Assembly: GCF_054482525.1 (NCBI RefSeq)
Contig: NZ_CM137006.1
Strand: one strand, 5' to 3'
Length of the DNA: 64,000 nt
A model generated the notes under the pieces. It searched no databases. It was given only the letters and a program-made list of their open reading frames with translations, and was not told where the DNA came from. Positions within the stretch are counted from its first letter, which is position 1. The number at the start of each line of letters is the position of its first letter. Below, piece by piece: positions 10,177-53,550 of the stretch. Both the position numbers and the translations under genes were made by a program.

Positions 10177-11292
10177 TTAGAACTGGTAGACGATACCAAC
10201 TGCAAACTGGTCATCAGCTGCTGCGCCAGTAATGGCGGCGTCATCTTTATCCAGCATGTTGAATTTGTATGCAGTATAAACGTTCATGTTCTTATTGAAG
10301 TAGTACCAGGTACCAACTTCAATGTAGTTCACACGGTCAGCGTCAACATATCTATGTCCAGGTACACCTTTGATATCTTTACCTTTAGAATACACATAAC
10401 CTAAGGACGGACGCAGACCAAAGTCGAATTGATACTGAACAACCGCTTCAAAGTTCTGGGTTTCATTGATAAGTTGATCACGCATTATTGTATTGCCTTC
10501 TCGATCGGCAACACCTGTATCAATAGAACTCGGAGTCATATTACGAGTTTCACCGTACATTACAGCTGCGTAGACATTGTTCGCGTCATACTTTGCAGCC
10601 AATGACCACAGTTCAGCATTTGAACCGTTTCCATCGGCAACTTGATCGTTGGTGCGATCAGATTTGCTATATGCACCAACGATACCAAAACCATTGATGT
10701 TATAGTCTACAGACAACGCATAGCCGTCACCATTTTGTTTCTTAGTGCTACGGTTGCTGTTTTTGCCTTGGTACTGAATCGCAAAATCAAGACCATCAAC
10801 CAGACCAAAGAAATCAGAGTTACGGTAGGTTGCAACACCGTTGGTACGACCGTTCATGAAGTTGTCAGCGGACGCCCAGGAATCACCACCCCATTCAACT
10901 AACATATCGGTATAAGCTGCGGCATCATAAGCAACACCGTAGTTACGACCATAGTCGAAAGATCCTAACTCGTTATATTTCAAACCTGCGAAGGTTAAAC
11001 GGGTTTTTTCCTGATTAGAGCCTTCGGGCTTGCTGGCGTCGAGGTTGTATTCAAACTGACCAAAACCAGTCAGTTCGCTGGTGATTTGGGTTTCACCTTT
11101 AACACCGAAACGAGCATAGGAGGTATCTTCGTTTTCGCTGTTATTATCATCAGTATTTGACCAGATGCGTTCGCCAACCATCTTGCCGTAGAAATCAACT
11201 TTATTGCCATCTTTATTATAAATTTCAGCCGCATTTGCTGCGCCAGCAACTAATAACGCCGGGACCAGCATTGCCAGAACTTTTCTTTTCAT
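10177..11292 (-). CDS. yedS: Outer-membrane general porin of the OmpC/OmpF family (YedS), apparently intact
   Basis: Signal peptide [21 protein letters not shown], porin-like beta-barrel sequence, C-terminal ...VGIVYQF; start chosen at the ATG with an AAGGGA Shine-Dalgarno (ORF track begins at 11322). Confidence 0.85.
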
Positions 11293-11602
11293 TATGTATT
11301 CCCTTGTGATTATAATCTTCATGAATATATCAATAAGTGCTGTTATCCAAAAAAAAGCACATTTGGATACTATTCTATGAAGTTCATTTTATTTTAAAGA
11401 TTACATGTAACAAATGTATTTAAAAGATTTCAAAATGTTTCCAATCTATTTAATATAATTCAGAATTATGAATTCTAAATATAAGCATTCATGAAAATTA
11501 TAAATACATATCAATATGTTATGAGTTGAGCGGAAATATAGGGGGTATCAATGATTGTTGCGCCAAACGGCTGGTGTGATCACGCGCACATTAATGAAGA
11601 CA

Positions 11603-11700
11603 TAAAAAAAGCCGGCATCATGCCGGCCCAAAAAATATAAACAAGACGATAAAAGGCTAATAACGGAAGCATCATGACACAGAATAATAAAAAGGGATAA
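11603..11700 (-). ncRNA. rseX: Candidate small RNA upstream of yedS (position expected for RseX); 5' end not determined
   Basis: Minus-strand terminator (hairpin GCCGGCATGATGCCGGC plus T-run, plus 11604-11627) in the yedR-yedS intergenic region; RseX is known from this position in K-12. Confidence 0.3.
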
Positions 11701-11857
11701 TTGTAATCAGTGCTAATATATTGATCGAATGAATTAATAAAGCCGATATCAAAGATAAATAAAATCGCTCAAAACGATTTTTCCTGTATTCACTGCCATT
11801 GCGCAAAAATTATCTATTTGTTCAAAAAATGATTGAGTCTTGACTGGCTCATCCAAT

Positions 11858-12223
11858 GTGGAAAAATGTGACTTTTATCACATAATAGTACTAAGTCTGA
11901 ATTTTCCGGGTTATCTCAAAATGGAATACGGTTCGACAAAGATGGAAGAGAGACTCTCTCGCAGCCCTGGTGGCAAATTGGCTTTGTGGGCTTTCTATAC
12001 ATGGTGTGGCTATTTTGTCTGGGCAATGGCGCGTTACATCTGGGTGATGAGCCGGATCCCCGATGCCCCCGTGTCGGGATTTGAAAGCGATTTAGGCTCT
12101 ACCGCGGGAAAGTGGTTAGGGGCACTGGTCGGCTTTTTATTTATGGCTCTGGTCGGGGCATTGTTAGGCAGCATTGCCTGGTACACCCGACCTCGTCCCG
12201 CACGCAGCAGACGCTATGAATAA
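11858..12223 (+). CDS. yedR: Inner-membrane protein YedR
   Basis: Small ORF with two transmembrane segments; start uncertain (GTG 11858 gives 121 aa; ORF track begins at TTG 11840). Confidence 0.75.
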   Translation: MEKCDFYHIIVLSLNFPGYLKMEYGSTKMEERLSRSPGGKLALWAFYTWCGYFVWAMARYIWVMSRIPDAPVSGFESDLGSTAGKWLGALVGFLFMALVGALLGSIAWYTRPRPARSRRYE

Positions 12224-20028: not shown

Positions 20029-20116
20029 AACACATCAGATTTCCTGGTGTAACGAATTTTTTAAGTGCTTCTTGCTTAAGCAAGTTTCATCCCGACCCCC
20101 TCAGGGTCGGGATTTT
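20029..20116 (+). ncRNA. dsrA: DsrA small regulatory RNA
   Basis: Sequence AACACATCAGATTTCCTGGTGTAACGAATTTTTTAAGTGCTTCTTGCTTAAGCAAGTTTCATCCCGACCCCCTCAGGGTCGGGATTT including its terminator hairpin and U-run. Confidence 0.9.
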
Positions 20117-53420: not shown

Positions 53421-53496
<76 letters not shown>

Positions 53497-53550
53497 GTTT
53501 AAAAGACATCGGCGTCAAGCGGATGTCTGGCTGAAAGGCCTGAAGAATTT

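Follow-up and report, generated by a model that had tools for sequence, protein, structure and literature searches.

The rseX small RNA gene between drpB and an intact porin gene: an orthologue of the Escherichia coli K-12 locus

According to Douchin et al. (2006), as reported in PMC8313858 and PMC7648144, the small RNA RseX suppresses, in multicopy, the essentiality of RseP, which is how it was found, and its repression of ompA and ompC depends on Hfq. Its list of targets has since become longer. The mRNAs of fimB and ihfB are repressed through direct pairing (PMC8313858), and that of fepA is repressed through the terminator loop of RseX, which is reported to be necessary for the effect, without detectable base-pairing (PMC11979758). 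In the curated record of MG1655 the gene (ncRNA rseX, b4603) occupies 2033649..2033739, flanked by drpB (yedR) and by yedS, there a pseudogene.

The native RNA is rarely seen. It went undetected in wild-type K-12 and in Salmonella, sigma-E induction and exposure to polymyxin included (PMC1804206); it became visible only in hns mutants, and de-repression in RNA-seq was greatest in the hns stpA double mutant (PMC8313858). The Salmonella homologue lies outside the sigma-E regulon, and RseX has no sigma-E consensus (PMC1804206, PMC8313858). Since RseX is silenced by H-NS and does not depend on sigma-E, the sigma-E-inducing condition proposed for RNA-seq in the preliminary description of the present locus is the wrong one. 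Such an experiment would probably show nothing, without refuting rseX; an hns-deficient background would be informative.

The DNA analysed here is a stretch of 64,000 nucleotides (the window), all of which was scanned against Rfam 15. On its minus strand, at 11604..11693, it contains a full-length match to RF01401 (rseX, an Hfq-binding RNA), which spans positions 1-94 of the 94 of the model and scores 97.7 bits (E = 3.2e-12) against a gathering score of 50. Alignment with the curated rseX of MG1655 (b4603) gave identity at all 90 bases, the tail being seven U in the window and eight in K-12. The gene is divergent from drpB and lies between drpB (yedR) and yedS, as it does in K-12, and the region is 100% identical to that of E. 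coli PCN033. The preliminary description had put forward a candidate for RseX at this position on the strength of a minus-strand terminator, and had named the K-12 alignment and the covariance-model search as checks. Both have now been run and, together with the synteny, they bear the candidate out. Its reservation that the 5' end could not be defined has to be dropped, because homology to the mapped K-12 start allows the 5' end to be defined at 11693; this +1 derives from the K-12 annotation and from the K-12 5' mapping cited in PMC8313858. The 3' end is at 11604. That the element is the orthologue of K-12 rseX we consider practically certain (a probability of about 0.97). It is thus an already known gene, and as a feature it is ordinary. 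PGAP has left rseX without annotation in those RefSeq records of E. coli that were listed, the PCN033 record among them.

The terminator deserves some attention, as it was the starting point. Read from the sequence, the minus strand shows GGGCCGGCAUGAUGCCGGCUU followed by a U-run. The Rho-independent terminator extends over 11604..11629 on the minus strand, with a stem-loop at 11629..11609 and a U7 tail at 11610..11604; its core is GCCGGCA-UGA-UGCCGGC. On the plus strand the same interval reads AAAAAAA-GCCGGCATCATGCCGGCCC, which becomes GGGCCGGCAUGAUGCCGGC plus seven U on the minus strand. On the plus strand the hairpin precedes an A-run, and hence it terminates minus-strand transcription only. 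When 11250..12000 (750 bp) was scanned for terminators, this hairpin with its T-run (a 3-nt loop and 9 pairs, 6 of them G-C) was the sole terminator-like site, whereas shuffled sequences are expected to yield 0.4 ± 0.6 sites. The hairpin is also the centroid structure of the folded RseX RNA, at -14.6 kcal/mol. Sequence reading, scan and fold therefore agree with the minus-strand intrinsic terminator claimed earlier, and the transcript end predicted here, 11604, is next to the earlier estimate of about 11603. The statement that no protein gene lies upstream of the hairpin on its own strand holds as well: mechanical ORFs of 35-50 aa are all that the window offers there, and the identical PCN033 record has no annotated CDS upstream of the hairpin on the minus strand.

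An intact porin gene of 371 aa occupies the yedS position (10177..11292, minus); it shares the strand of rseX and lies 311 nt downstream. Its resemblance to K-12 yedS, a pseudogene, is limited: blastn aligns only the first ~510 nt, at ~74% identity. The intergenic region upstream of the porin is 97% identical to K-12. The porins encoded at the same position in other Escherichia (another E. coli included) and in Citrobacter share 53-56% protein identity with that of the window. This is a hypervariable porin slot behind a conserved small RNA.

The arrangement invites the idea that the element acts mainly in cis, as a leader or attenuator for the porin gene behind it, the short RNA being a by-product of transcription that stops at the hairpin or reads through it. 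The porin gene does follow on the same strand in the window, and one lies downstream in K-12 and in all six homologous loci that were fetched (see below); moreover, "RseX and surrounding areas" are de-repressed together in hns mutants (PMC8313858). The terminator is, however, a strong one (7 core pairs, G-C or A-U, and a U7 tail), and the promoter scan places two promoter-like sites between rseX and the start of the porin gene. RseX supplied from a plasmid acts in trans on ompA, ompC, fimB, ihfB and fepA (PMC11979758, PMC8313858), and K-12 keeps rseX unchanged though its yedS is a pseudogene. A leader function as the main role is therefore very improbable.

On the other side, drpB (yedR) runs divergently from rseX on the plus strand, at 11921..12223 if the ATG-22 start of PMC7648144 is adopted. 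Its start is given inconsistently: PGAP has 93 aa from 11942 (3403..3684 in L002 coordinates), the curated K-12 record and PMC7648144 have 100 aa from the ATG at 11921. The drpB promoter has been mapped between GTG-1 (11858) and ATG-22 (11921) (PMC7648144), and one candidate of our promoter scan, 11859..11886, lies within this interval. Farther away, the window contains a full-length gene for the small RNA DsrA at 20029..20115 on the plus strand (RF00014, 102.5 bits), as expected in this chromosomal neighbourhood, and a cluster of three tRNA genes at 53421..53720, also on the plus strand, with Rfam tRNA matches of 69.1, 54.0 and 57.7 bits.

RseX is widely distributed. The RNA is present in 4879 of 5426 complete E. 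coli genomes, in 1622 of them with at least 99% identity, and ~10% are without it. In the sole rseX-less genome that was examined (NZ_OX460316.1, 2587..4045 of locus L011), IS1A stands in the place of rseX, of yedS and of the 5' portion of hchA; this points to a deletion mediated by the IS. Two rseX matches are reported on plasmids. Beyond the complete E. coli genomes, the GTDB representatives were searched once with a degenerate pattern, and six loci emerged: five in Escherichia (E. albertii, E. whittamii, two further species and another E. coli) and one in Citrobacter amalonaticus; the Rfam rseX model confirmed all six, with 70.9-95.2 bits. Only the E. coli E69 fragment is without drpB among these loci, and the four that reach far enough have a complete yedJ. 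From Salmonella, the degenerate core pattern picked up nothing among the GTDB representatives. A Salmonella RseX homologue is described in the literature (PMC1804206); the pattern was probably too strict.

The RNA stays conserved as far as Citrobacter while its flanks diverge. Within it, the alignment of homologues shows nt 12-23 and nt 29-49 to be invariant; variation is seen in the 5' tail and in the loop that closes the first hairpin. The longer block, nt 29-49 (CGUUAUUAGCCUUUUAUCGUC; 11645..11665, minus), does not vary across 8 homologues that range from Escherichia to Citrobacter, and is likely the seed for target pairing. The 5' hairpin of the Rfam consensus (nt 14-38; 11656..11680, minus) is weak, with 7 pairs, 3 of them G-U. 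Support from covariation was sought for it and turned out uninformative, the stems being invariant; the terminator shows one compensatory change, from G-C to A-U at the base of its stem, in Citrobacter. As a whole, the RNA is not folded with unusual stability (z = -1.33), which is typical for a small RNA with an open seed and a terminator. A U6 run at 11630..11635 on the minus strand, read from the sequence, directly precedes the terminator. A U-rich run combined with a 3' U-tail is the usual Hfq-binding module of Hfq-dependent small RNAs. By this analogy, the U6 run and the U-tail would provide RseX with a putative link to Hfq.

A small protein gene was also considered. A 31-aa ORF at 11580..11675 (minus) starts with an ATG at nt 19 of the RNA. 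Within Escherichia its amino-acid sequence is conserved over the first ~15 codons; this apparent conservation, however, results from the invariant nucleotide block. No Shine-Dalgarno sequence precedes the ORF, which passes through the terminator without a stop codon inside the RNA; the Citrobacter start codon is AUU, and a 1-nt indel shifts frame and stop between species. The protein reading was rejected on these grounds, its chances being negligible. Equally negligible is a functionless GC palindrome that arose by chance in AT-rich intergenic DNA: the failure to detect native RseX in wild-type bacteria under laboratory conditions (PMC8313858, PMC1804206) and its lack in ~10% of the complete E. 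coli genomes, by an IS1-associated deletion in the one examined, might suggest it, yet it is ruled out by the score of the covariance model (E-value 3e-12), by the conservation of the RNA beyond that of its flanks and by the published experimental activity (PMC11979758, PMC8313858).

For the small RNA, then, the question of targets arises. Pairing was assessed by a scan for contiguous helices, with mononucleotide shuffles as the reference. With ompC the result is clear: RseX nt 30-43 form 14 contiguous pairs with positions -14..-1 of the mRNA. Their energy, -14.1 kcal/mol, was reached by no more than 7 of 1000 shuffles. This helix covers the Shine-Dalgarno sequence up to the AUG, and its RseX side falls within the invariant block. 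With ompA, helices of 9 bp can be formed by this block, one at -22..-14 and one at -15..-7, the energy of which is matched by 125 of 1000 shuffles; a local duplexfold on the initiation region was matched by 18 of 500. The predicted ompA pairing is thus not clearly better than chance. Other procedures proved less useful. Full-length RNAduplex of RseX with the 5' regions of ompA, ompC and yedS produced loop-ridden, AU-rich duplexes barely unlike those of shuffles, and the local duplex version, run against the initiation regions, likewise produced long, AU-rich duplexes near those of shuffles; both were replaced by the contiguous-helix scan.

Pairing with the mRNA start of the neighbouring porin was considered too and was rejected: in its initiation region the scan found nothing above chance, 935 of 1000 shuffles being as good. 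The region that encodes the porin signal peptide (11233..11260, minus) holds CGUUAUUAG, a 9-nt identity to RseX nt 29-37. It has the same sense as the seed and is not complementary to it; in AT-rich sequence this is probably a coincidence. One may still ask whether rseX and the hypervariable porin gene constitute a single porin-swap cassette silenced by H-NS, in which RseX, once de-silenced, would clear OmpC and OmpA from the outer membrane and the adjacent porin would replace both. The adjacent porin gene is intact and its mRNA is not predicted to pair with RseX. The conserved linkage of rseX with a porin gene permits a co-silenced module of this kind, and does not show it; we regard the cassette as an unlikely proposal.

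The promoter of rseX appears to be weak. The candidate -10 box is TACAAT at 11700..11705 on the minus strand, i.e., at -12..-7 relative to a +1 at 11693, and it is conserved among the Escherichia homologues. The candidate -35 box, TCGATC at 11723..11728 (minus), was read from the sequence; it is a weak one, with 3 of 6 matches and a 17-bp spacer. With 8 of 12 positions matching in the two hexamers, the site was not called by the simple promoter scan, which needs 9 of 12; as far as sequence can tell, this fits a weak rseX promoter.

Upstream of rseX the window differs from K-12 by TA>CG at -34/-33 and by A>C at -3. The exact 67-nt upstream allele (11694..11760, minus) is a rare one. Among the 5426 complete E. 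coli genomes it is carried by only 4, namely PCN033, SCU-102, MEI003 and 19KM1776. The TA>CG change, which is specific to the window in this comparison, is carried by the candidate -35 box. It yields TCGATCAATA, an 8/10 match to the nucleation motif of H-NS, which reportedly reads tCG(t/a)T(a/t)AATT (Lang et al. 2007). It also falls inside the interval -42..-32, in which the H-NS motif of K-12 rseX has its peak (PMC8313858). The rare allele could therefore alter the silencing of rseX by H-NS.

The top sigma-70-like match in the region is a different one. It is located on the plus strand at 11674..11701 (ATGACA-16-GATAAT, 10/12; TATAAT in K-12), where it is antisense to the 5' end of rseX and overlaps the rseX -10 box. 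Its -35 hexamer, when reverse-complemented, gives UGUCAU, an invariant motif of RseX. The match may be spurious or may be an antisense promoter. As the drpB promoter it was rejected, since the latter has been mapped between 11858 and 11921 (PMC7648144).

Taken together, the following scheme can be proposed. A weak promoter of the sigma-70 type, with TACAAT as -10 and a poor -35, would start transcription at 11693, and the GC hairpin with U7 would halt it at 11604 to release an RNA of 90 nt. RseX, which binds Hfq according to published work on the same sequence, would do so via its U-rich 3' module, and the single-stranded invariant block, nt 29-49, would base-pair with the ompC and ompA mRNAs at their ribosome-binding regions. 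This pairing is presumed to block translation and to promote decay of the mRNAs. RseX would also repress fimB, ihfB and, via the terminator loop, fepA. Normally, the RNA would be almost absent, its AT-rich promoter region being silenced by H-NS and StpA. The present analysis itself shows the identity of the gene, its boundaries and terminator, its synteny and conservation, and its complementarity to ompC; Hfq binding, repression in vivo and silencing by H-NS would apply to the present strain by extension from the literature.

What has been gained is modest. A real gene, missed by automated PGAP annotation, has been recovered by a scan, which is of little import beyond annotation. On the timing of RseX expression or on its linkage to the variable porin gene, the sequence alone adds nothing.

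Compared with K-12 RseX, the RNA of the window has the same bases, the same position between drpB and yedS, the same terminator, the same -10 box and the same seed block; it differs in the tail, which makes it 90 nt long with U7 instead of 91 nt with U8. With MicC, MicA, MicF and RybB it shares the general design: these are Hfq-dependent, trans-acting RNAs of roughly 70-110 nt that end in a Rho-independent terminator and pair at the ribosome-binding site of omp mRNAs. Even targets are shared, ompC with MicC and RybB, and ompA with MicA (PMC1804206). Because Rfam assigns the element to rseX only, however, it has no sequence relationship to these porin-repressing RNAs. RseX also differs from them in being silenced by H-NS instead of being controlled by sigma-E or OmpR (PMC8313858, PMC1804206). 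The 3' ends of SdsR and ArrS, finally, resemble RseX in a repression of fepA that depends on the terminator loop (PMC11979758). Their sequences are unrelated to RseX, the loop of which is identical in the window.
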